DNA of 33,073 nt from Planctomycetia bacterium (GTDB taxonomy: Bacteria; Planctomycetota; Planctomycetia; Pirellulales; UBA1268): NCBI GenBank assembly GCA_037147115.1, contig JBAWVV010000003.1, positions 1 through 33,073 of the forward strand. The letters run 5' to 3'. The notes under the pieces were generated by a model. It did no database searches. It saw only the letters and a program-made list of their open reading frames with translations, and was not told the DNA's origin. Each line of letters starts with the position of its first letter. Position 1 is the first letter of the stretch. Made by a program: the position numbers and the translations under genes. Below, in pieces: positions 1,837-25,548 of the stretch.

Positions 1837-2922
1837 ATGCGGGCCGCGATCATCGGCATCGGCGCGATCGCGCGGATGCATGCTAAGGCGCTAGCGGACA
1901 TCGACGGCATCGAGCTTGTCGCTGGGTGCTGCCGCACCGAGGCGAAGGGGGGCGCGTTCGCGGAGGAGTTCGGCTGTCGGTGGTACGCCGATGCCGCCAC
2001 GATGCTGCGCCGCGAGAAGCCTGACTTCGTCACGATCGCCACCCCTTCCGGTGCCCATCTGGAGGGCGTGAAGGCCGCAGCGCGGCGCGGGGTCCATGTG
2101 ATCTGCGAGAAGCCGCTCGAAATCACGCTCCGGCGGATCGACGCCATGCGGGCGATCGCCGCCCAGGCGGGGATCACGCTGGGCGCGATCTTCCCGCAGC
2201 GATTCAACCCGGTTGTCCAGACCGTCCGCGCGGCGGCGGCGGCCGGTCGCTTCGGCCGCCTGGCGCTTGTCGCCGCGTACGTGCCGTGGTGGCGTGATGA
2301 TGCCTATTACGGCGTCGGGCGCTGGCAGGGAACCGCCGCGCTCGATGGCGGCGGCGCCCTCATGAACCAATCGATCCACGGCGTCGACGCCCTCCAGTGG
2401 ATCGCCGGCGCGACAATGCCGGGGCTCGCCCCCGGTGAAAACCCGGTGGAGAGCGTTGTGGCACTGACGGCGATCCGGGCCCACGACCCCGCCCGGCTCG
2501 AGGTCGAGGACAGCTGCGTGGCCGTGCTCCGGTTCCGTGACGGCGCGCTCGGGCAGATCCTCGCCACCACGGCGATGTTCCCCGGCCAGCTGCGTCGGAT
2601 CCTCGTCGGCGGCCGCGACGGCACCGCTGAGATTCTCGAGGAGCAGCTGACGGATTGGCGATTCCGCGCGCCTGCGCCGGACGACGACGCCACCCGCTCC
2701 CGATTCGGGGCGGGGAGCAGCACCAGCGGCGGGGCGGCCGATCCGATGGCGATCAACTACGCCTGCCACACCCGCAACTTCGAGGCCTTCGTGACCGCCC
2801 TCCGCGCAGGGCGCCGGCCCGAACTCGATGCCCTCGAGGGGCGGAAGGCCGTGGCGATCGTCGCCGCCTGCTACAAATCGGCCCGCACCGGACGGCCGGT
2901 GAAGATCGAGGATCCCTCCTGA
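1837..2922 (+). CDS. Gfo/Idh/MocA family oxidoreductase
   Basis: AIIGIGAIA Rossmann start, IATPSGAH, HVICEKPL, DGGGALMNQSIHGVD; RBS aggagg at 1825-1830 before ATG 1837. Confidence 0.93.
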   Translation: MRAAIIGIGAIARMHAKALADIDGIELVAGCCRTEAKGGAFAEEFGCRWYADAATMLRREKPDFVTIATPSGAHLEGVKAAARRGVHVICEKPLEITLRRIDAMRAIAAQAGITLGAIFPQRFNPVVQTVRAAAAAGRFGRLALVAAYVPWWRDDAYYGVGRWQGTAALDGGGALMNQSIHGVDALQWIAGATMPGLAPGENPVESVVALTAIRAHDPARLEVEDSCVAVLRFRDGALGQILATTAMFPGQLRRILVGGRDGTAEILEEQLTDWRFRAPAPDDDATRSRFGAGSSTSGGAADPMAINYACHTRNFEAFVTALRAGRRPELDALEGRKAVAIVAACYKSARTGRPVKIEDPS

Positions 2923-2935
2923 CTCCGGAGCCGCG

Positions 2936-3763
2936 ATGCGCTACGCCATCTGTAACGAGACGTTTGTCGACTGGCCGCTGGAGCGGGCTTGTGCCGAAGC
3001 TGCTGCCGCGGGCTACACCGGCCTCGAGGTCGCGCCGTTCACGCTCGCGAACCTCGTCACCGAGCTTTCGACGCGGGAACGGGCGACGATCCGGGATACG
3101 ATCCGGGCCGCGGGGCTGGAGTGCCTCGGCCTCCATTGGCTCCTGGCCAAGACCGAGGGATTTCATGCAACGCACGCCGACGCCTCGGTGCGTCGGGCCA
3201 CGACGGCCTACCTCGGCGAGCTGGCGCGGCTGTGCCGCGATCTCGACGGCCGCGTCCTCGTCTTCGGCTCGCCGCAGCAGCGCAGCCTCCTCCCCGGCAC
3301 GACGCCGCAGGAAGCCATCGACCGGCTCCAGGGGGTATTTTCTGACCTCGTGAGGGTGCTCGAGGAGACCGGCACGGTGGTGGCCCTCGAGCCGCTCGCA
3401 CCGAGCGAAACCGATGTTCTCAACACCGCCGCCGAGACCTGCCGGCTCATCGAGCGAATCGGCTCGCCGCACGTCCGCCTCCATCTCGACGTCAAGGCGA
3501 TGTCGAGCGAAGTCGAGCCTATTCCCGCGATCATCCGGGCTTCGGCCCGCCACCTCGAGCACTTTCATGCCAACGACGCCAACCTCCGCGGCCCGGGCTT
3601 CGGCGCGGTCGACTTCGGTCCGATCTTCGCGGCCCTCCGCGGCGCGAGCTACCCCGGCTGGGTGAGCGTCGAGGTCTTCGATTATGCTCCCGGTCCCGAG
3701 CGCACCGCCCGGGAGAGCATCGCCTACATGCGGGGGGTCGGGGCCGGGCTCGATGCGGCGTAG
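2936..3763 (+). CDS. Sugar phosphate isomerase/epimerase, D-tagatose/psicose 3-epimerase-like TIM barrel
   Basis: GYTGLEVAPF, VFGSPQQR, ALEPL, LHLDVKAM, HFHAND…RGPG, WVSVEVF (metal ligands E/D/H/E). Confidence 0.9.
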   Translation: MRYAICNETFVDWPLERACAEAAAAGYTGLEVAPFTLANLVTELSTRERATIRDTIRAAGLECLGLHWLLAKTEGFHATHADASVRRATTAYLGELARLCRDLDGRVLVFGSPQQRSLLPGTTPQEAIDRLQGVFSDLVRVLEETGTVVALEPLAPSETDVLNTAAETCRLIERIGSPHVRLHLDVKAMSSEVEPIPAIIRASARHLEHFHANDANLRGPGFGAVDFGPIFAALRGASYPGWVSVEVFDYAPGPERTARESIAYMRGVGAGLDAA

Positions 3764-14567: not shown

Positions 14568-14828
14568 TCAGTTGCAGCAGCCGTCGGCCGGGACCGGGGT
14601 GGCAGCCTTGAGAGCGGCTGCTTCCTTGGAGAGTTTGAACTCTGGTCCGGCCGGGAAGTATTGGATGTCGTCCTGGAGGTAGTAGGCGCTGGGGAGCGTC
14701 TGCCCACCAATGTCGACCTGACAACCCGTCAGCCCGACGCTGGCCAGGGCCAAGCCCCCCAGCAGGGCCGCGCGGACGTCGAGCCGGGTCGTGGTCCGGG
14801 TCCGCCGGTCCGCAGTCGATGATCTCAT
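14568..14828 (-). CDS. Small lipoprotein (86 aa) of unknown function
   Basis: Arg-rich n-region, hydrophobic stretch, lipobox LTG-C, then QVDIGGQTLPSAYYLQDDIQYFPAGPEFKLSKEAAA; has its own terminator; resembles a conserved planctomycete family from memory. Confidence 0.82.
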   Translation of the reverse strand: MRSSTADRRTRTTTRLDVRAALLGGLALASVGLTGCQVDIGGQTLPSAYYLQDDIQYFPAGPEFKLSKEAAALKAATPVPADGCCN

Positions 14829-14920
14829 GGTTCTCGCCCCTGCATCGGTGCTTTGTTCCGCGTCACGGTTCGCTGTCGGGCCAGGCCCGGCAGGGTCGAT
14901 CCGCCGCCGACCGCAGTGGT

Positions 14921-14947
14921 ATCGGCCGACAGAACCGGCAAACTTTG
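14921..14947 (-). promoter_or_regulatory. Putative sigma28 (FliA/WhiG)-like promoter CAAAGTTTGCC-N10-GCCGAT
   Basis: Matches the wza upstream motif at 16 of 17 positions with the same spacer; similar to TAAAGTTT-N11-GCCGATAA. Confidence 0.6.
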
Positions 14948-15023
14948 ACAAACCGTTGCGATCGTTCGAAACGGCGCCAGCGGAGCCCCCCGGCTGCCCG
15001 ACGTTTCCCAGACTACCGGTCAG
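14925..15023. repeat. Degenerate 9-bp-period array
   Basis: CG dinucleotides at 14927, 14936, 14954, 14963, 14972, 14981, 14999 and 15017 (8 of 11 in-phase slots); units such as accggcaaa, accgttgcg, aacggcgcc, accggtcag. Confidence 0.55.
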
Positions 15024-15058
15024 TCGAAGGTCTGACGGCGGGCTGGGATTCCTCGTCA

Positions 15059-15077
15059 CCGACCCGACTCGGGTCGG
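15059..15077. promoter_or_regulatory. Perfect 9-1-9 palindrome, a possible operator or hairpin
   Basis: ccgacccga-c-tcgggtcgg, 20 nt upstream of a TACAAC -10-like hexamer (15097-15102). Confidence 0.4.
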
Positions 15078-15109
15078 CGGGCACGTGGGGAAGGTGTACA
15101 ACTGGCGGC

Positions 15110-18100
15110 ATGTGGCGCGTTGTTCCCTGGCAGTCGCTGTTCCGCCGATCGGCCGCGATCCTCGCGGTGACGGGCCTGTTGAGCCTGGGGGTGGCCCGGG
15201 CCCAGATCGTGCCCCGCGGGGCCCAGACCGTGCCGACGATCGCCTTTGATGCCGCGCTTGCAGCGCTGGCCAACGGCGACTTTAGCGTGGCCCTGGAAAC
15301 GGCCGGCCGGGATTACGGGGCGGGGGTCCGCGCCGGGAATCAGCGCTGGATCGACTCGATCGCCTCCGCCACCGCGATCGGTGAATCGCAGTACGAACTC
15401 GGCAACTGGCGGGATTCCGTCGCCGCTTACGAGGAGGCGATCGGCCTCGGCACAGCGCATGCCGAGTGGTTGCTGGCGGTCCAGTTTCCGACCCAAGGAC
15501 CGCAGCCTTCACCGCGCCCGCGCGTGGCCACCTGGGGGCGGAGCGCGCGGGGCACCAAGCCGGCAACGTTTCCCGACACGATGACGATCCGGCAGACGGC
15601 GGCCGATCCCCAAAAAGTGCTCCAGCAGGGGGGAGTGCTCGCGGCCCCGGTCAATGTTCCGATCCGTCCTCATGAGATCATGCGGGCCCTCGTGATCGCG
15701 ATCTACCGTCGGGCCGTGATCCTCGGGCCGCTTGCCGGCGAGGGGAATGCGATCGAGGGGTTGAACAACGCCCTTGCGAAGCGCCCGGCACCCCCGAACC
15801 ACTGGTCGCAGTCGTGGATCGACGTGGCACTGGGAACCGCGGCATGGTCGCAGGGCCGGCTCGATCAGGCGGTGCCGCTGCTCGAACGCGGCGTGGCCCT
15901 GGGCGGCAAACTCGATCACCCGTTGACCGCCTGGGGCCTGCTCGTGCTCGGACGGATCGCGCTGGCCCGCGACGATTCCATCGGCGCGGCGCGGTGGTTC
16001 GAGGAGGCGACCTACGCGGCGGCCGAGTTCGGCGATGCCCGTGCGCTCGAGGAGGGATTCCGGATGGCGTTCGCCGCTCACCAGGCTGCCGGCACGCCGG
16101 GGGTGCCGGCAACGGTCCACGGGGGCTGCGAGTGGGCCCGCGGTGGATTGCCCGCGCTGCGGACCACCCTCCTGGCGCACGAAGCGGAGGCGTTGGCTGC
16201 CGCTGGCAATCTTCAGGGGGCGCGGGCCCGGCTCGGAGAGGTCGACGCCAGGTTTCTCCGCACGGATGCCGGCCAGGGGACGCCGGGCGCCGTCGTCGCG
16301 CATGCCGCGGCCCTGACGGCGTACGGCGCCGGCGATCCGACCACGGGGGATGCCGAGATGGAGCGCGCCCTGACCATGGCCCGCCCCCGTTCCCCGCGCC
16401 TCTTCCAGACCGGCCGGCTCGTAGAGATGGTGATGGCCGGGGCGACGACGATCTCCGACCGGCAGGCAGACGTGCTCTTTGCGCGGCTCCTCGGCGACCC
16501 GCCGCCGCGGGAGCTTGTCATCGATCCTCTGGCCACGCTCGCGGCGATGACGACGCCCCGCCCCGAGGCCCACGAAGCGTGGATGTTGGTCGCGGCGCGC
16601 CGTGGCAGCGATCCGGCCCTGGCCGCCGCGGAGGCCTCGGCCCGGGCCCGGTGGCTCGACACGCAGCCGGTCGGGGGGCGACGGCTGGGGCTCGAGCGTC
16701 TCCTCGGCCCCGATCCGTCCGGGCTGGGGCCTGACGCCGTCGCCGGCCGGACGGGACTCTTCAGACGCCATCCGGAACTGGCCCGACTCGTCGACGAGGA
16801 TGCCCGCCTGCGGACGGCGCTGACTGCCGCGCTCCTTGCCTCCGCCGGCGGGAATGGTGGCGGCGACGCCGGTCCGCCGCGCCGGGCCGGTCCGCCGGGA
16901 GAGCTGAGGGATTGGGAATCGTTCGCGCAGGGCTCGGCCCGACGCGGGGTCTTGATCGATCAGCTCGCTGCCGGCCGGGAGCCGATCGGGCTCGAGTTTC
17001 CCCCACTCCTCCCCCCGGCCGATGTCCGTGGAAGGTTGGCGCCGGGCGAACTGCTCCTCTCCTTTCATTGGGGCGCGTCGGGGCTGTGGGGGGCGCTGGA
17101 GTCTCGCGACCGCGTCGCCCTGTGGCAGGTCCGGCAACCGGCGGCCCTGGCCCGGGAGCTAACCCACCTAGCGAAGGCCCTGTGTCTGTTCGACCCCCAC
17201 GTGCCGGTGGGGACTGATCGGATCATCGCTTCCGACTGGCGGGCCGCGATGGTCACCGTCGAACGACTCCTCTTCGAGCAGTCGAAGGTCACCCTCTCGG
17301 ATGGGATCGACGAGCTCGTGATCGTGCCCGACGGAGCGCTGTGGTATCTGCCGTTCGAACTCCTCCCGACCGGTTCCGCCGGCGAGCCCGCCGACGGCGA
17401 TGCGGCGACCGTCGAGCCGCCGCCGCTCCTGCGAGACGTCTGCCGTATCCGCTACGCCCCCACCCGCAGTCTGGCCGTCGCTGGCAGGCCACCGGCGCCG
17501 TTGGAACCGCCGGCCGGGCGTGGGCCCGTCGGCATCCATGCCGGCCGGGCCGTTCGCGGGGAACGGCCGGAGGCGATCGGGGAGGCGGTCGACCGCCTCA
17601 CGCAGGCCCTCGAACGCGCCGTCGTCCTCCCGGCCCAGCCACTCCAGCAGCATGGTGTCGTCGTCTCGCCGTTGCTCCCGGCTTCGTTGTGCGAGACGCT
17701 CGTGGTCCTCGACGAGATCAATGTTGCCGGTGAGGGGGCGGTGGGCTTGCGCGGCCTGTTCGGTCGTCCGCCCGACCGTGGAGCCAAGTCGGGGATGACG
17801 TTCAACGATTGGCTCGCTTCGCCGCACAAACGTCCCCCACTGGTCATCCTGCCGGGGGTCCAGTCGGCGATGGCCTCGGGGCTCACCAAGCTGCAGTCCC
17901 GGCCGGGGGAAGAGCTGTTCATCGCCGCCACCGACGTGCTGGCCGCCGGCGCCCGCACGGCGCTGGTCAGTCGCTGGCGGATGGGGGGAAAGTCGACCAC
18001 CGATCTCGTGGCCGAGCTCGTCCGCGATAGCGACGATCCGACGGCGATCCCGGCGGCAAGTTGGCGGCGGGCGGTCGATCTGGTCTCCGCTGAGGAGCCC

Positions 18101-18310
18101 GATCCGGCGTTCGAGGGGCGGATCCGGGGGGTTGGCCAGACGGTACTGACCGACATGCGTCACCCGTTGTTCTGGGCCGGCTACATGCTCATCGACGGCG
18201 GGATCAGCGCCCCGGTCGAAGCGGCCGCGGTGAAGGGCATCGGCGGCCGTCCGGCCGCGTTGCCGGCGGCAGGCAAGCGCGATCCGGCGGCCGTCCGGGG
18301 GGCGAAGTGA
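15110..18310 (+). CDS. Large secreted helical/TPR-like protein with a degenerate C-terminal CHAT (caspase-like) domain
   Basis: Signal peptide …AAILAVTGLLSLGVARA-Q from ATG 15110; CHAT hallmarks DELVIVPDGALWYLPFELL, GARTALVSRW, HPLFWAGYMLI. Confidence 0.85.
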   Translation: MWRVVPWQSLFRRSAAILAVTGLLSLGVARAQIVPRGAQTVPTIAFDAALAALANGDFSVALETAGRDYGAGVRAGNQRWIDSIASATAIGESQYELGNWRDSVAAYEEAIGLGTAHAEWLLAVQFPTQGPQPSPRPRVATWGRSARGTKPATFPDTMTIRQTAADPQKVLQQGGVLAAPVNVPIRPHEIMRALVIAIYRRAVILGPLAGEGNAIEGLNNALAKRPAPPNHWSQSWIDVALGTAAWSQGRLDQAVPLLERGVALGGKLDHPLTAWGLLVLGRIALARDDSIGAARWFEEATYAAAEFGDARALEEGFRMAFAAHQAAGTPGVPATVHGGCEWARGGLPALRTTLLAHEAEALAAAGNLQGARARLGEVDARFLRTDAGQGTPGAVVAHAAALTAYGAGDPTTGDAEMERALTMARPRSPRLFQTGRLVEMVMAGATTISDRQADVLFARLLGDPPPRELVIDPLATLAAMTTPRPEAHEAWMLVAARRGSDPALAAAEASARARWLDTQPVGGRRLGLERLLGPDPSGLGPDAVAGRTGLFRRHPELARLVDEDARLRTALTAALLASAGGNGGGDAGPPRRAGPPGELRDWESFAQGSARRGVLIDQLAAGREPIGLEFPPLLPPADVRGRLAPGELLLSFHWGASGLWGALESRDRVALWQVRQPAALARELTHLAKALCLFDPHVPVGTDRIIASDWRAAMVTVERLLFEQSKVTLSDGIDELVIVPDGALWYLPFELLPTGSAGEPADGDAATVEPPPLLRDVCRIRYAPTRSLAVAGRPPAPLEPPAGRGPVGIHAGRAVRGERPEAIGEAVDRLTQALERAVVLPAQPLQQHGVVVSPLLPASLCETLVVLDEINVAGEGAVGLRGLFGRPPDRGAKSGMTFNDWLASPHKRPPLVILPGVQSAMASGLTKLQSRPGEELFIAATDVLAAGARTALVSRWRMGGKSTTDLVAELVRDSDDPTAIPAASWRRAVDLVSAEEPDPAFEGRIRGVGQTVLTDMRHPLFWAGYMLIDGGISAPVEAAAVKGIGGRPAALPAAGKRDPAAVRGAK

Positions 18311-19237: not shown

Positions 19238-20113
19238 ATGCTCGTCGAAGCGGATCAACTCACGAAGCGGTATGGCCCGTTCACGGCGCTCGAGGGCTGC
19301 TCGTTGGCCGTCCGTCAGGGGGAGGTGTTCGGCCTCCTCGGCCCCAACGGCGCGGGGAAGACGACCTTCCTCCGCCTCCTTCTCGGCTTCATTCATCCCA
19401 CCTCCGGCACGGCCCGGGTGGCAGGGCACGACTGCGTTCTTGATTCGCTCGCCGTCAGGGCTGCGACCACCTATCTCCCTGGGGAGGCCCGCCTCTTTCG
19501 CCGGATGACGGGCCATCTGGTCCTCGATTTCTTCTCACAATTGCGCCGCGAATGTCGCCGTGACGAGGCCACACGCATTGCCCGGCGCCTCGATCTTGAC
19601 TGTTCGCGCCAGGTCGCGCGGATGAGCACGGGCATGCGGCAGAAACTCGCCCTGGCCGTCGTCCTCGCTACCGAGGCGACCCTCGTGATCCTCGACGAGC
19701 CGACGGCGAACCTCGACCCGACGGCCCGGGCGGTCGTCCTCGATCTCGTCCGCGAGGCGCAGGCGGCCGGTCGGACGGTGATGTTCTCTTCGCACGTCCT
19801 TTCCGAGGTCGAGGCAACCTGTGACCGCGTCGTGATCCTCCGGGCAGGGCGGGTCGTCCACGAGCAGTCGGTCGCGCAGCTCCGTCGCCATCATCGCATC
19901 ACCGCCCGGCTCGAGGGGGATTTTGGAGAGGTGCCGGCGGAACTCCGCGAGCATGTCACCGTTACCCGCGACCGCGACGGCAGGATCGTCCTCGAGACAG
20001 CCGATTCGTTGCGGCCGCTCCTCGGCTGGCTCTCGACGCTTCCTCTCGGTGAGATCCGGGTCGACCCTGTCGGGCTCGATGCCGTCTATGACCGTTTTCA
20101 TCGCCATGGGTGA
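19238..20113 (+). CDS. ABC exporter ATP-binding protein
   Basis: Walker A GPNGAGKTT, signature MSTGMRQK, Walker B VILDEP, FSSH switch. Confidence 0.95.
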   Translation: MLVEADQLTKRYGPFTALEGCSLAVRQGEVFGLLGPNGAGKTTFLRLLLGFIHPTSGTARVAGHDCVLDSLAVRAATTYLPGEARLFRRMTGHLVLDFFSQLRRECRRDEATRIARRLDLDCSRQVARMSTGMRQKLALAVVLATEATLVILDEPTANLDPTARAVVLDLVREAQAAGRTVMFSSHVLSEVEATCDRVVILRAGRVVHEQSVAQLRRHHRITARLEGDFGEVPAELREHVTVTRDRDGRIVLETADSLRPLLGWLSTLPLGEIRVDPVGLDAVYDRFHRHG

Positions 20114-20948
20114 CCGCGTGTGGAATACCGCCATCTGGCGCAAAACCTGGGGTGACCAGCGCGGGCTCGTGCTGGCGTTTGCGGCGCTTTGGGGCGTGTT
20201 CCCCTGGCTGTTCCTTTGGCTGTCGGCGCAGATTCCGATGCTGGCATTCCAGGACGTGCTCCTTCAGGCGATCCCGAAGGACTGGCAGCGGCTCTCCGGG
20301 GTGCCATTCTCCGACGTTGCGACCCACGCCGGCCGGGTGGCACTGGCCTTCGTCGATCCGGTCGTCGTGCTCGCGGCGACGGTCTGGGGGATCACCCGGG
20401 GGAGCGATGCCGTGTCGGGGCAGCTCGAACGGGGCACGATGGAGTTGCTCCTCGCGCAGCCGGTGCGGCGCCGGGCCCTGTGGGTGACACAGGCGCTGGC
20501 GACGACCGCGGCGGCGGCCTGCCTGTGCGGCGTGCTGGCCCTCTCGGTGTGCGCTGCTGTGGCCTACGGCCCGTGGGCCGGCAAGGTCGAGCCGGGTCGA
20601 TTCCTCCTCCCGGTCGCCAATGTCTTCGGCCTGATGGTCTGCCTGGCCGGGATCTCCGCCTGCGTGTCGGCGGCCGACAGCTATCGCTGGCGGACGATCG
20701 GCGTGATGTCCGGTTTTTACGTCTTCTCCCTCTTGGCGAAGCTCGTCGGCCGAATGAGCGGGGCGTTCGGCTGGGTCGGCTACCTCTCCTTTCTGAATGC
20801 CTACGAACCGCAGCGGCTGGTCGGGGACGCCGCGGCGAGCTGGACGAATCTCCTCGTCTATGACGGCATCCTCCTCGGCGTCGGGGGCGTGGCGTACGTC
20901 ATCGGCGGCGTGATCTTCTGCCGTCGCGACCTCCCCGCCCCCCTGTGA
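20106..20948 (+). CDS. ABC-2 type exporter permease
   Basis: Six TM segments, VSGQLERGTMELLLAQPVRR, C-terminal FCRRDLPAPL; start ATG 20106 or GTG 20118. Confidence 0.9.
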   Translation: MGDRVWNTAIWRKTWGDQRGLVLAFAALWGVFPWLFLWLSAQIPMLAFQDVLLQAIPKDWQRLSGVPFSDVATHAGRVALAFVDPVVVLAATVWGITRGSDAVSGQLERGTMELLLAQPVRRRALWVTQALATTAAAACLCGVLALSVCAAVAYGPWAGKVEPGRFLLPVANVFGLMVCLAGISACVSAADSYRWRTIGVMSGFYVFSLLAKLVGRMSGAFGWVGYLSFLNAYEPQRLVGDAAASWTNLLVYDGILLGVGGVAYVIGGVIFCRRDLPAPL

Positions 20949-21083
20949 TGCGCCGGCAGCGCCCGCCGCCGTTTTCCCCGTCCGCCGATCCGTCTGGCCC
21001 CAAGGGTGGGGCCCGTCGCATACTGAGGGGACAGGGGATGCCGATCTGTCCGGCCCCCATGGCCCCCTCGAGGATACGACTCG

Positions 21084-22892
21084 ATGAACGTTCTCCCGCG
21101 TGCCAGCCGTTTCCTGCCGCCGTCGTCGCAGCGTTCGGATCGCCACCGTCGCGGCCGGTGGTTCCTGGCTGCGGCATCGATCCTGCTGGACCCAGCGGCG
21201 TGCCTCCCGCTCCACGCCGATGAACCGGCCGTGGAGAGTGCCTCGGCCGCGGCGGCGGGGCAGGAGGATCTCGATGCGGCTGTCGATGCCAAGCTGGCGG
21301 CCCGGTCCCTCGATGATTTCGAGCGGGTCCTCGGGCTGGTCCGAGCCGCCCTCCGGAAAGGGCTCGAGGAGTCTTCGCGGGGGTTCGCCAACGACCTCTA
21401 CACCGGCACGCTGGTCGATCGGGCGTCGATGCTCACCGAGGCACTGTTCGACGGCGCCCCGGGGGCCCAGCAGCAATGGGAGCGGATGCGGGCTTACGCG
21501 CTGCGCGATCTCGGGGAGGTGGTGCAGCGCGACGACACGCTCGCTGCGGCGCACGTGATGATCGCCCGCCTCGAGGCGCTCCCCGGGGGGGATCGGCAGC
21601 GGGCCGTGAGCTCTGCCCGCCGCGCGGTCGACCTCAGCGGCGACGACCCGCTGCAGACGGCCCAGGCCCACGTTGTGCTGGGGAATCTCGCCGAGGATGA
21701 TCTGCCGGCTCGCCGTGCCGACTACGACAAAGCGGTCGAACTCGCCCCCCGGGATGCCGATGTCCGACGGACGCGTGGTCTGTTCCTGATGATGGAGGGA
21801 GATCAGGACGGTGCCCTGGCGGACTTCGACGTGGCGATCGAGGAGGATCCGGACGATGTCCGGATCCGTGAGATGCGCGGCCTGTCGCTGCTCATGGCGC
21901 AGCGGACCGACGACGCCCTCAAGAACTTCGACGACGCCCTCGAACTTGCCCCCGACTCCGCCGACATCCTCTTCCAACGCGGGCGGGTGTTTGCGTCGCA
22001 GGGAAACCTCGAGCGTGCGATGGCCGATCTCGATCGGGCGATCGCCACGGTCCCCGATGCGGACGAGCCCCGCGTCCTCCGGGCCCGGTTGCACCAGCAG
22101 GCTGGCAGCACTGACGACGCCCTCGCCGACATCGCGCACGTGCTCGCCCGCGACCCCGACCACCGCTCGGCCCTCGAGCTTCGCGCCCTGCTCGCAGCTG
22201 ACCGGGGGGATTATCCGTCGGCGATCGCCGACTTCCGTCGACTCGTCCGCCAGAGCCCCAACGACGCCGTCGTCGTCGGCCAACTCGGCTTCCTCTACCT
22301 CGCAGCCAAGGAACCAAGAGAGGCGATTCGCCGCTTCAATCGAGCCTTGGAGATCGATCCAGAGCAGTTTCTCGCCCGGCGCGGACGCGGGGATGCCGAA
22401 ATCTCCATCGGCGATCACGCCGCAGCGCTCGCCGACCTCGAAAAGGCCATGGAACTGCAACCGGACAACGACACGGTCCTCAACAATCTCGCTTGGGTGC
22501 TCGCCACGAGTCCGGACGATGCGGTCCGGGACGGCAAGCGGGCCATTGGGATTGCCGTGAAAGCCTGCGAATTGACCGAATGGAAGCAGCCGCACGTGAT
22601 CAGCACGCTGGCTGCGGCCCACGCCGAATCGGGGGATTTTGACGAGGCAAAGAAATACAGCCGGCAGGCCGTTGACGGGAGTGACGAGTCGTCTGAGGTC
22701 CGCGACCAGCTGAAGAGCGAACTGGCAAGCTACGAGGCGGGGAATCCGTGGCGCGAGCGGCAGTCGATGGAAGAAGGGGAAGGGCGCGGGGAGGGGGGAA
22801 GTCGCGGGCCGGAGAAAGATCCGCCGGCGAAACCGGAGCCGACGGACCCTGGCCCGAAGCCCGGCGCGCGTCGCCCCTTCGACGACGACTGA
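21084..22892 (+). CDS. Exported tetratricopeptide repeat protein
   Basis: Signal-like N-terminus ending PLHA-D; many TPRs (ALADFDVAIEEDP, AMADLDRAIATVP, ALADLEKAMELQP); NNLAWVLATSPDDAVRDG…TLAAAHAESGDF cap. Confidence 0.92.
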   Translation: MNVLPRASRFLPPSSQRSDRHRRGRWFLAAASILLDPAACLPLHADEPAVESASAAAAGQEDLDAAVDAKLAARSLDDFERVLGLVRAALRKGLEESSRGFANDLYTGTLVDRASMLTEALFDGAPGAQQQWERMRAYALRDLGEVVQRDDTLAAAHVMIARLEALPGGDRQRAVSSARRAVDLSGDDPLQTAQAHVVLGNLAEDDLPARRADYDKAVELAPRDADVRRTRGLFLMMEGDQDGALADFDVAIEEDPDDVRIREMRGLSLLMAQRTDDALKNFDDALELAPDSADILFQRGRVFASQGNLERAMADLDRAIATVPDADEPRVLRARLHQQAGSTDDALADIAHVLARDPDHRSALELRALLAADRGDYPSAIADFRRLVRQSPNDAVVVGQLGFLYLAAKEPREAIRRFNRALEIDPEQFLARRGRGDAEISIGDHAAALADLEKAMELQPDNDTVLNNLAWVLATSPDDAVRDGKRAIGIAVKACELTEWKQPHVISTLAAAHAESGDFDEAKKYSRQAVDGSDESSEVRDQLKSELASYEAGNPWRERQSMEEGEGRGEGGSRGPEKDPPAKPEPTDPGPKPGARRPFDDD

Positions 22893-22902
22893 CCCCGGTT
22901 GC

Positions 22903-23634
22903 TCAACGCCCCGGCTCCGTTGAGCCGGGCGACCGGCGGGGGGACGATTTCGCCAGCCGTTCGAGCGATTCCAGCCGGAGCGAGGCCGCCCGAGCGGCAT
23001 GGATGTTGCCGGCCCGCTGCCAGGCGCGGATCGTCAGGCCCTGGGCCAGGATCGCCACATCGTAGCGGTGATCGACCTCGGCACGCGTCGCCACGCCCGC
23101 GGCTGCGTTGGCGAGGTCGGACGCCCGCCCCGGATCGATGGCTCGCAGCGGGATCTCGAGGAGCGAGCGGTATTCGACGGCCAGGGCGTCGAAGTCGAAC
23201 TCGGCCGACGCGACCCGCACCGACCGCCCGACGACGAGGGGGCTGCCCGCGGAGATGGCCAGTTTCCTGGCCTCCTCGAGGATCACCCACTTCACCGCCG
23301 GGTCGGATTCACCGGCCGCCTCTGCCATCAGTGCTTCGGCCAGCAGGAGTGTGGCGGAGGAGGTCCGCACCCGCGCCGCCGGATTCCCGTAGCGCTGTCG
23401 AAACTCCGACCGGGCATCGACAAGGGCTCGCTGCGACGGGACGGCCCCACTTGCTTGCGACGGAGCCAGCGTTTGCATCCGTGGCCGCTCCGGGCGCGGC
23501 TCGTTCTTCCCGTCTTCGATCGAAGGCGGGTCGGCCCGGGCGCCGGGCCGACTGGAGGCATCTGGGGAGGGCAGCCACACGGTCATGCCGAGCATGGCAA
23601 GCGCGAACCGCCAGAAGGCGCAGGAGCGTTTCAA
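22903..23634 (-). CDS. Hypothetical exported alpha-helical protein
   Basis: TTG start overlaps the upstream stop (TTGA, suggests coupling); hydrophobic N-terminus; helical region LLLAEALMAEA…DPAVKWVILEEARKLA..AG…FDFDAL. Confidence 0.65.
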   Translation of the reverse strand: MKRSCAFWRFALAMLGMTVWLPSPDASSRPGARADPPSIEDGKNEPRPERPRMQTLAPSQASGAVPSQRALVDARSEFRQRYGNPAARVRTSSATLLLAEALMAEAAGESDPAVKWVILEEARKLAISAGSPLVVGRSVRVASAEFDFDALAVEYRSLLEIPLRAIDPGRASDLANAAAGVATRAEVDHRYDVAILAQGLTIRAWQRAGNIHAARAASLRLESLERLAKSSPRRSPGSTEPGR

Positions 23635-24047
23635 CGATTGCCGGGATAGAAATGGGAGGTGTTTTGGAACGTCGCACTGTGGCCGGTGGACCGGATCGTG
23701 TTGTACATCTGACCGCTGTTACCACCACCGCGTTGGATCGAGCGGACCTGCCCCTGCACACCGTTGAGTTGCCTTCCGAGGCTCACCTGCTGCTGGACCT
23801 GGGAGGCTTGAAGTTGCTGCGGCCGAACGAGATTTTGCAGCGCCCCGAGCGTGCCGCCGGTGTTGGGATTGTCCCCCTGGAAACCGAGCGCGGTGTAGGG
23901 GCTCAAGCCCCTCCGGCCGGTGTAATCGGAGAACGGCATCCGACCCTGTTGGGCCGCGGCGGTCGAAGCGAACGTGCCGACCAGAAGCAGCGCCGTCACG
24001 GGCAACGCGATCCGCCAGGCCATCGAGAACGTCTTGCGGTGGGGCAT
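23631..24047 (-). CDS. Small secreted Gln/Gly/Asn-rich protein
   Basis: RBS GGAGA 8 nt before ATG 24047; signal peptide ending STAAA-Q; motifs LSPY..L, LVRPQQ, TGHSATFQNTSHFY. Confidence 0.8.
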   Translation of the reverse strand: MPHRKTFSMAWRIALPVTALLLVGTFASTAAAQQGRMPFSDYTGRRGLSPYTALGFQGDNPNTGGTLGALQNLVRPQQLQASQVQQQVSLGRQLNGVQGQVRSIQRGGGNSGQMYNTIRSTGHSATFQNTSHFYPGNR

Positions 24048-24153: not shown

Positions 24154-25548
24154 TCAGCGAGGGAACTCGGCGTGGGGAACAGCCACCTTCGTGTCGATCC
24201 CCCAGCGTTCAGCAAGTTCGGCTCCGCGGAAGGCGAGGATCGTGTCCATGACCGTCCGCACGGCCAGTTTCGCCGCCGGCTTGTCATGGATCCAGGCGGC
24301 GAAGGCCTCACCATGGGTGGCGTAGGTGTCACGCAGCCAGATGGGGGCCTCGGTCAGCAACCAGGCCCGGAAGAGCAGCCAGTTGGGGTTTTCCTCGCCA
24401 TACACCTCGCGGGCAACCCAGCAGATACCACCGCCGAAGTTGGAACCACGCTGGAACGTGTAGACCGTCTGGGCACCGAGGAGCGTTGACCCCATGATCT
24501 GCTCGAACGGCGCGGTGACCTTCTCGATGATGTTGTTGAAGGCGATCCACGGATCCTGGGCGATGAACAGGCGGTCGCCAGGGAGGAGTTGGTAGTTGGT
24601 CGCCGTGGCGCCCCCCCTCATGATCGCGTCGATGTCGACCGGCAGAACCTGATCACAGCCGATCCCTGACGGGGCCGGCCGGGCGATCCAGATCTCCTTG
24701 CTGGAGAGCTTTGAGAGCCCGTTGATCTGAGCGATGGCGTCGAGCACGGTCTCGTTGCCGGTGACGGGAAACTTGGCGACATTGTCCCCCTGCCCCGCTC
24801 CCTCCGTGATCACATAATAGACCTTCGAGTTGTAGCTAAAGACGTCAACGCTCACGAGCGGCGCGTCGAGGAACTTGTCGAGTTGGGCCTCGATCACCTC
24901 CTTCGCCTCCGCGAGCGTCAACCCGGTAACGTAGACGCTCCCGTAGGTGCCGAGATTGACCGTGCCGTCCGGGCCGACAAGATGCTCTCCGGTCACCTGC
25001 TGCTGCCCCGCGGCCTGGGCGAGCGTGAGCGAGACCTGCGGCTCCCGCAGCACGCGCTTGAGGTGACGAAAAACGGCATCCTGGGCCTCGTCGAGCGATT
25101 TGCCACCGACGGCAACCTTCCCGTAGGAGGGGCCGAGGTCGAGGAGGCCGCCCGGTTCAACGACATAGATCCCGTTGATCGGTTGTTCGAGGAGGGTTCC
25201 CTCGACGATCACCTGGAGCGAATCGAACGACTGGATCCGGAACGGCGGCTTCGGCACGATCCGCAGCGCGTCGATGAGGAGGATGTCCGGCGGTTCGATG
25301 ACGTAGGGAGGGAGCGACACCTTCGCCAGTTCCTTCGCGGGCATCTTGGCAGGATCGCCATCGCAATTGGCAGCGAGGGTGGCCTCGTGGGACGCCGTCC
25401 GCTGGGGGCGGCCGTAGATGTTGCAGCCAACGCTCGTCAGGAGCAGCAGGGCCGCCACGAGGAGGCGCACCACACCCGTCAGGTCGGAGAGGGTGGGCTG
25501 CAGGCATCCCGCGGCGATGGGGACTTTTTGGTGGCGATTTCGGGGCAT
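24154..25548 (-). CDS. wza: Polysaccharide export lipoprotein (Wza/OPX family) with an additional C-terminal Cys-initiated domain
   Basis: RBS AAGGAG 6 nt before ATG; lipobox SVG-C; PYVIEPPDIL; two Poly_export-like repeats (VEPGGLLDLGPSYGKVAVGGKSL; VGPDGTVNLGTYGSVYVTGLTL); SLBB GNETVLDAIA; NYQLLPGDRLFI; amphipathic helix; then GGGICWVAREVYG domain. Confidence 0.9.
   Translation of the reverse strand: MPRNRHQKVPIAAGCLQPTLSDLTGVVRLLVAALLLLTSVGCNIYGRPQRTASHEATLAANCDGDPAKMPAKELAKVSLPPYVIEPPDILLIDALRIVPKPPFRIQSFDSLQVIVEGTLLEQPINGIYVVEPGGLLDLGPSYGKVAVGGKSLDEAQDAVFRHLKRVLREPQVSLTLAQAAGQQQVTGEHLVGPDGTVNLGTYGSVYVTGLTLAEAKEVIEAQLDKFLDAPLVSVDVFSYNSKVYYVITEGAGQGDNVAKFPVTGNETVLDAIAQINGLSKLSSKEIWIARPAPSGIGCDQVLPVDIDAIMRGGATATNYQLLPGDRLFIAQDPWIAFNNIIEKVTAPFEQIMGSTLLGAQTVYTFQRGSNFGGGICWVAREVYGEENPNWLLFRAWLLTEAPIWLRDTYATHGEAFAAWIHDKPAAKLAVRTVMDTILAFRGAELAERWGIDTKVAVPHAEFPR

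Follow-up and report, generated by a model that had tools for sequence, protein, structure and literature searches.

Escherichia coli Wza, an exporter of the OPX group, ends in the Wza_C helix, which spans the outer membrane (aa 326-359 of 2J58) and whose presence defines the Class 1 OPX proteins, according to the excerpted text of PMC9603273. A helical pore in the outer membrane of the host is formed by the T7 ejection protein gp14 (PMC8954989, in excerpt). CFI-box-CTERM is a named C-terminal domain family (NCBIfam NF041770.1, a model of 69 positions with a cut-off of 40 bits) whose function is not established. Here, we analysed a window of 33,073 nucleotides, the whole of positions 1 to 33,073 of contig JBAWVV010000003.1 from a freshwater Planctomycetia bacterium, in which the gene at 24154-25548 on the minus strand encodes a Wza-type exporter of 464 aa. 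While E. coli Wza stops at its Wza_C helix, the planctomycete exporter runs about 96 residues further, and none of the three OPX classes set out in the excerpt of PMC9603273 includes such a terminal domain. We are confident, on the evidence described below, that this tail is an autonomously folding, all-helical module of ~70 residues with an invariant leading Cys, and that it belongs to a large undescribed family.

Judged by its sequence, the body of the protein is a Wza/OPX-type polysaccharide exporter. The 464 residues, translated from 24157-25548 on the minus strand, match Poly_export (PF02563) in two stretches at 72.8 bits against a Pfam cut-off of 28, and phmmer against the PDB sequences aligned residues 185-331 with residues 95-231 of E. 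coli Wza (2J58), the D1-D2 region, at E 7.9e-9, with seven more Wza/OPX chains also matching; the NCBIfam matches to Wza-type exporters were weak and all below threshold. At the N-terminus, a hydrophobic stretch ending in TSVGC is consistent with a putative lipoprotein signal, and G41 and C42 are invariant across 67 aligned homologues. Over this region the exporter frame is the only long open reading frame (ORF) with family support, the remaining ones being the usual spurious ORFs of G+C-rich DNA. With E. coli Wza and the Class 1 OPX proteins it shares the Poly_export domain and the link to glycan synthesis genes; a putative lipoprotein signal and, at low confidence, a predicted helical segment at the place of Wza_C would add to the likeness. 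Past residue 332 the protein reads DPWIAFNNIIEKVTAPFEQIMGSTLLGAQTVYTFQRGSNFGGGI and after it CWVAREVYGEENPNWLLFRAWLLTEAPIWLRDTYATHGEAFAAWIHDKPAAKLAVRTVMD..., that is, CWVAREVYG and onwards up to residue 464. A preliminary description, made from the letters and their translations, had read this gene as encoding a Wza-type exporter to whose C-terminus a domain of about 90 aa has been added, entered through a Gly linker that leads into a Cys, and this reading holds: the stretch from Cys376 to the end counts 89 aa, and the strings that it quoted and the Cys codon at 24423-24421 agree with the translation.

The same description had itself named a Cys that is not conserved and a chimeric assembly at about 24440 as grounds against its proposal, and neither was borne out. 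The suspicion that faulty assembly or gene calling had fused Wza with unrelated (phage) sequence draws on the mostly viral occurrence of the module elsewhere and on the fragmentation of the source assembly into 856 contigs, but the fusion recurs in related genomes. The tail domain is present in 16/16 genomes of the same genus, mostly as one match in a frame of ~466 aa, and PF02563 and the tail occur together in 112 of the 120 best listed homologues from ENA, JGI, NCBI and Logan (within a set length range); two of the eight homologues that lack PF02563 are Wza fragments truncated at the N-terminus. The junction at 24440 is also bridged by contigs of runs from different studies (X1 record 2, 24276-24900; X4 records 8/9, 24346-24563; X5 records 15/16, 24376-24490), which differ from this sequence by substitutions and by one-codon in-frame insertions at 24431-24433 only. 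These insertions, found in related strains (runs X4 and X5), fall within the Gly linker shortly before the Cys codon and are the pattern expected of a coding flexible linker; the linkers of homologues read FGFNPN.. or are Gly/Met-rich. Related genomes, listed homologues and bridging contigs all show the fusion, which rules out a chimeric assembly at this point and leaves the artefact with a practically negligible probability.

Next, we used the tail as a query of 98 aa in a phmmer search of 1.84 billion representative proteins (clusters at 50% identity), which found 1,143 proteins at E<=1e-3, 719 of them at E<=1e-10; the family traits reported here were read from the 150 listed of these 1,143. 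The N-terminal Cys is present in all 146 informative representatives, the other four of the 150 being fragments that start inside the domain. Joined with 115 complete viral carriers, these 146 give a set of 261 sequences across which the domain is gap-free over 60 positions, with C1, W2, A4, R5, G9, W15, Y34 and G38 at a frequency of 1.0 and V3, V7, F18, R19, W21, A42, K52 and M59 at 0.97 or more. The core measures ~68-74 aa, with the consensus CWVAREVYG...NP.W..FR.W....AP.W....Y...G..FA........K...R..MD, and is rich in aromatic residues (median 11-12 W/F/Y per 62 residues, and 9 in this tail). A scan of viral contigs for a WVAREVYG pattern that does not require the Cys codon, and so would also find Cys-less variants, returned the same 120 listed stretches as the full motif, with no new locus and no Cys-less variant among them.

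The position of the module within its carriers is almost as constant as its sequence. From the Cys to the end of the protein there are at most 100 aa in 142/146 representatives and 63-95 aa in 115/115 complete viral carriers, the exceptions being P0126, P0130, P0131, P0156 and also P0019, in which the copy is internal and further protein lies behind it. In the planctomycete proteins P0019, P0126, P0131 and P0156 the internal copy is followed by a short common motif (..GGHFQVS.. or similar) and then by several hundred residues. The segments upstream of the Cys are flexible, often hydrophobic and 'glycine-zipper-like', and positions -25 to -1 are rich in Gly (25-26%) and Ala (15-19%). A small-xxx-small-xxx-small pattern was seen in 108/143 representatives and 93/114 viral carriers, and a hydrophobic 17-mer lies within 40 aa upstream of the Cys in 63/143 and 78/114, respectively. 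The residue at position -1 is variable, mostly F, L, M, A or G. A lipobox of the Lgt type at this internal Cys was considered and ruled out, position -1 being mostly F, L or M and not G, A or S.

Structure prediction with AlphaFold 2 (AF2) from an alignment of 27 rows gave a tail of four helices and no strand, with a mean predicted local distance difference test score (pLDDT) of 83.9 and a predicted template modelling score of 0.72. The helices span tail residues 11-17, 23-33, 37-54 and 58-83, the pLDDT exceeds 90 for most of residues 11-80, and the Cys is predicted to stand immediately before helix 1. Searches for described relatives of this domain were negative: the tail had no match in Pfam (E<=10), NCBIfam (E<=1) or PHROGs (E<=0.01), a profile search of the PDB sequences produced only matches at E ~0.5, and the best structural likenesses in the PDB were a Foldseek hit with E 6.6 and a VIA-align hit with Z 3.8 over 48,161 chains, which is noise for a helical domain. 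The only real matches in BFVD were two proteins of uncultured phages that bear the same domain, at 48% identity. In the protein atlas the nearest clusters, at 0.87 and so below the trusted range, were viral (Uroviricota) and planctomycete 'hypothetical proteins' and serve as a lead only. A full-text literature search with the names and motifs of the module and of the CFI box found no mention of either. The features of the exporter are collected in Table 1.

Table 1. Parts of the exporter gene and of its C-terminal module, in positions of the window
Feature	Positions	Strand	Basis
Whole ORF, 464 aa + stop: OPX/Wza-type polysaccharide export lipoprotein (putative) with added C-terminal module	24154..25548	(-)	Translation, PF02563, 2J58 match
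N-terminal signal region (putative) with lipobox-like end ...LLLLTSVGC (Cys42)	25423..25548	(-)	Read from sequence; AF2 helix 24-37
Best Poly_export (PF02563) stretch, residues 182-236	24841..25005	(-)	Pfam; second stretch upstream
Predicted helical segment(s), residues 333-368, at the place of the E. coli outer-membrane-spanning Wza_C helix	24445..24552	(-)	AF2 helices 333-352 and 360-368, low pLDDT
Linker SNFGGGI, residues 369-375, length variable between strains	24424..24444	(-)	Sequence; in-frame insertions in related contigs
Four-helix 'CWVAREVYG' module, residues 376-449 (conserved core 376-435, last helix to ~449)	24202..24423	(-)	AF2, family search, conservation, hhalign
Codon of Cys376, first residue of the module, invariant family-wide	24421..24423	(-)	C1 frequency 1.0 in 261 sequences
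Poorly conserved end, residues 450-464, predicted unstructured, polar	24157..24201	(-)	pLDDT ~50, no secondary structure; conserved in close relatives only

A parallel with CFI-box-CTERM had been drawn in the preliminary description, and it proved right as to remote homology; membership of NF041770 itself was not supported. Both domains start with Cys-aromatic-aliphatic-Ala-x-x-Ala/Val-Tyr-Gly, are similar in length, and follow a Gly-rich linker where secreted or envelope proteins reach their C-terminus; in the exporter, CWVAREVYG comes after GGGI, for comparison with 121 CFIATAAYG tails. To obtain the CFI side of the comparison, back-translated CFIATAAYG was searched in genome contigs, which gave at least 120 stretches from many bacterial phyla and some archaea, in which a Gly-rich linker leads up to the motif and the motif in turn begins a C-terminal region of ~70 aa, and NCBIfam assigned these CFI-type tails to NF041770.1 with 104.6-113.2 bits. 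An hhalign comparison of the 146 tail-type with 117 CFI-type domains reached a probability of 95.9% (E 5.3e-9) over 60 columns starting from Cys1, whereas 30 column-shuffled controls stayed at or below 17.2% (29 of them at or below 2.4%) and the reversed control at 0.2%. Additionally, when a hidden Markov model (HMM) built from tail-type sequences alone was run on other planctomycete genomes, it picked out proteins of the CFI type, with E-values of 2.9e-8 to 7.8e-4. With hhalign well above its controls and with these HMM cross-matches, the tail and the CFI box are therefore homologous.

They are nonetheless not the same family. The tail had no match to the NF041770 model at E<=1, and a scan of its own genome with that model left it untouched. 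Behind the CFI domain, a hydrophobic segment with an Arg cluster follows in 72/113 complete tails, whereas such a segment follows the module in 0/146 representatives and 0/115 viral carriers. The tail family is also Trp-rich, with a median of 5 W against 1, and its carriers are mainly viral. Given the failure against NF041770 and the lack of the hydrophobic/Arg ending, the module is best treated as a family of its own, which on these profile comparisons is a remote sister of CFI-box-CTERM. Among the CFI-type proteins, one carrier from Citrifermentans bremense R1 (L052:4992-6911 (+)) combines the CFI box with a putative HExxH metalloprotease domain of the MXAN_6640 family (NF045524, E 9.8e-61), and its hydrophobic/Arg end weakly matches the MYXO-CTERM model (TIGR03382, E 0.011).

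As to which proteins carry the module, most of them are viral. Back-translated CWVAREVYG was found in at least 120 stretches of IMG/VR viral contigs, and every complete ORF among the matches listed ends in the domain. As an example from a cultured phage, gp25 of Puniceispirillum phage HMO-2011, with 706 aa, is encoded between tail-fibre genes and three large unnamed genes of the structural block. When 84 viral carriers were compared with PHROGs, 10 matched phrog_4287 'DNA ejection protein', six matched single tail, virion or unnamed families, and the rest matched nothing; Pfam recognised a family in a single carrier of the 84 (C19orf12-like, glycine-zipper membrane proteins). Pfam on 115 representatives recognised T7_gp14, Secretin_N (E 5.9e-4), DAP_epimerase and DUF3879, one each. 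The module thus sits on some members of the podovirus ejection proteins (T7_gp14 in 1/115 and PHROG 4287 in 10/84), and T7 gp14, like Wza, forms a helical outer-membrane pore (PMC8954989, in excerpt). The comparison has its limits: the tail itself matches no PHROG, the T7_gp14 match concerns one carrier as a whole, most carriers have no family, and the planctomycete exporter is cellular and not viral. In one viral contig two tandem ORFs of 209 and 215 aa (L170:2088-2714 and 2766-3410 (+)) each end in the module behind a Pro-rich linker.

In the genome of this organism there are two copies of the module, one of which is the Wza tail. The second (contig C442:3227-3457 (-), locus L001:1489-1794) lies behind a Gly/Met-rich linker, is broken by the contig end, and is orthologous to the C-terminus of ~1,550-aa proteins in relatives, whose representatives (P0151, P0126) have a VWA_3 domain and TPR. 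In this one planctomycete family, two envelope proteins have thus acquired the module: the Wza-type exporter and the ~1,550-aa VWA/TPR protein. In the relatives G209 and G219, a single open frame contains two module copies ~650 aa apart. Other planctomycete carriers include a PEGA protein (P0138) with a weak STN match of 17.7 bits, below the cut-off, and proteins without any family. The distribution is narrow: 21/24 genomes of the same family and all of the genus carry the module, with 1-3 matches per planctomycete genome, against 0/16 for 16 other families of the same order, and in the remaining phylum six weak matches were obtained among 200 genomes sampled, five of which are really CFI-type proteins. 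A tree of the domain (290 sequences, 62 columns) left 157 of 284 inner branches open and did not place the Wza-type rows in one clade (6 changes), and therefore allows no conclusion on the direction of transfer.

While these results establish with good confidence what the module is, how it works can be proposed only tentatively. It may be a non-enzymatic, terminal accessory domain beside membrane-inserting or pore-forming segments, in which an aromatic-rich surface and the thiol of the single Cys would hold or lock the pore end in the envelope, with the Cys acting through a disulfide between subunits or to a partner, or through another covalent modification; in a Wza octamer, the channel mouth would probably be ringed by eight copies. 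We infer such a juxtamembrane accessory role, with the Cys forming a covalent link in a membrane-inserted oligomer, because those carriers to which a name can be given (Wza, gp14-like or ejection, secretin-N-like) are proteins of envelope channels, because hydrophobic segments rich in Gly and Ala directly precede the module in many carriers, and because a membrane anchor follows closely on the CFI domains. Among outer-membrane channel proteins, the secretins likewise end in a short helical module, the S-domain or pilotin-binding tail, which offers an analogy only: the matches of carriers to secretin-associated domains are weak (STN in P0138; Secretin_N in 1/115), no relation in sequence or fold between the tail and secretin S-domains was found, and to our knowledge these S-domains have no invariant Cys. 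Module identity and mechanism taken jointly, we consider this the best explanation, with a somewhat better than even chance of being correct.

Several observations weigh against a juxtamembrane locking role. Net charge varies across the family, with a median of +6 for the viral copies and a value of -2 for this tail, which argues against a simple electrostatic lipid-binding role, and the planctomycete linkers are Gly/Met-rich, of low complexity and non-hydrophobic, so that proximity to a membrane segment is not universal. No recognisable family was found in 74/84 viral carriers and 111/115 representatives, and ten further carriers, HMO-2011 gp25 among them, had no PHROGs match; most carriers being unannotatable, it is a minority of them that supports the 'pore protein' theme. 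The invariant Cys, as first residue behind a flexible linker, also resembles a processing site. Finally, the placing of the tail at the outer face, which depends on the segment 333-368 being the equivalent of Wza_C, is weakly supported by the models. Pfam reported no match to Wza_C in the exporter, the AF2 helices of this segment have low confidence, and a second phmmer stretch that aligns residues 315-346 with residues 308-339 of 2J58 is weak (i-Evalue 480). The full-length AF2 model of the 464-aa protein is poor (pLDDT 58), probably due to an alignment whose 67 rows are 68-98% identical, and it decides neither the Wza_C helix nor the packing of the tail. If the segment were the Wza_C equivalent, the tail would lie outside the cell, as the preliminary description had proposed.

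Three other functions could be imagined for the module. The preliminary description proposed autoprocessing, in which the thiol attacks the preceding peptide bond in an N-S acyl shift and the tail is cut off, or the new end conjugated, so that the channel matures. The Cys is indeed invariant and in every case opens the module directly after a flexible linker, like that of a Hint, intein or hedgehog domain right after a Gly-containing junction, and the residue before it varies (F, L, M, A, G and others) as at the N-junctions of inteins. In P0177 a Hint domain precedes the module, with 5 residues from its end to the Cys, and one of the BFVD matches is named 'intramolecular chaperone auto-processing domain containing protein', so that the module can neighbour known self-cleaving units. 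The analogy with Hint is not supported by the domain itself, though. A typical Hint domain has roughly 130-150 aa and a β-rich fold, while the module has ~70 aa and is predicted to be all-alpha; no Hint or other Pfam family was found at E<=10, neither Foldseek nor VIA-align gave a match to an autoproteolytic fold, and the His, Thr or Asn that Hint domains use as partners has no invariant counterpart, H37 being only 52% conserved. The separate, real Hint in P0177, the only Hint-linked carrier among the representatives scanned with Pfam (9 + 115), suggests that the module does not supply that chemistry, and the internal copies in P0126, P0131, P0156 and P0019 keep several hundred residues behind them. 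We regard autoprocessing as improbable. As for P0177 itself, it is a phage structural protein of 1,177 aa (phrog_358, DUF4815), with the Hint at ~786-1100, including a Hom_end-associated part, and the module Cys at 1106.

The homology with a family that NCBI has named as a CTERM domain, together with the strict C-terminal position behind Gly-rich linkers, would also suit a sorting or secretion tag that dedicated machinery recognises and perhaps removes at the Cys, in analogy to PEP-CTERM/exosortase, MYXO-CTERM or the C-terminal domain of the type IX secretion system. The CFI-type tails, which mostly have the hydrophobic segment with the Arg cluster and of which one weakly matches TIGR03382, speak for it, but no hydrophobic segment follows the module in any of the 261 tail-type carriers, and the tail matches no sorting-signal model of NCBIfam. 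Sorting systems usually have many substrates, and a planctomycete genome has 1-3 matches; phage virion proteins, which are assembled in the cytoplasm, carry the module in abundance; and no candidate sorting enzyme was identified, although no search was aimed at a partner enzyme. A sorting tag is therefore distinctly unlikely in our estimate. Binding to glycan or cell wall, by which the module would hold the exported polymer at the Wza exit, tether the pore to peptidoglycan or lipopolysaccharide, or grip the host envelope in the case of phages, fits the wealth of aromatic residues, the envelope as the place of action of all carriers that can be named, and the polysaccharide biosynthesis cluster beside the gene. 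Against this, the tail resembles no known carbohydrate- or peptidoglycan-binding domain in sequence or fold, the conserved aromatics may mostly form the core of a small helical domain, and the invariant Cys is left unexplained, so that we rate this function as unlikely. A far-reaching extension of the accessory-domain proposal would make the module a common 'pore-end' device of alpha-helical outer-membrane channels, used both by phage DNA-ejection pores and by this planctomycete Wza, whose lineage would have taken it from phages, and in this device the Cys performs a covalent step (disulfide lock, lipidation or self-cleavage) at pore insertion; we consider it rather unlikely.

The genes around the exporter were also examined. 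It lies divergently beside a cluster for sugar-nucleotide and glycan biosynthesis, with four upstream genes on the opposite strand that encode a Polysacc_synt_2 protein (CapD/WbpM-like), a DegT aminotransferase, a Bac_transf protein and an AMP-binding enzyme, and with these neighbours the exporter gene belongs to a glycan export locus. Directly downstream, the ORF at 23634-24047 (-) encodes 138 aa with a signal-like N-terminus and a Gln/Gly/Asn-rich body for which Pfam gave no family, and the next one, at 22906-23634 (-) with 243 aa, is likewise without family. Further away in the window, 14819-18307 (+) encodes a protein of 1,163 aa that combines TPR repeats with a CHAT (caspase-like) domain at its C-terminus. 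Long antisense frames that face real genes, such as the one of 1,012 aa at 19962-23000 (-) opposite the TPR gene at 21084-22892, are common in G+C-rich DNA and were not counted as genes. In a metatranscriptome library (run X16) a related contig spans 24179-24425, which by itself is no proof of transcription.

These results describe a family of more than 1,000 clusters at 50% identity with an absolutely conserved first Cys that nevertheless has no entry in Pfam, NCBIfam or PHROGs. Its link to the CFI box provides a common frame for both families and extends the superfamily to phage virion proteins. For the planctomycete, the exporter has an architecture outside the three OPX classes of the excerpted PMC9603273, and if the tail is exposed at the surface, the channel opening would bear eight copies of it. 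For phage biology, a recurrent terminal module now marks structural and ejection proteins that are otherwise unannotatable. Should the shared pore-end device be true, it would represent a new post-translational maturation of helical outer-membrane pores and a first function for the CFI-box superfamily, and the invariant Cys makes the question of function directly testable.

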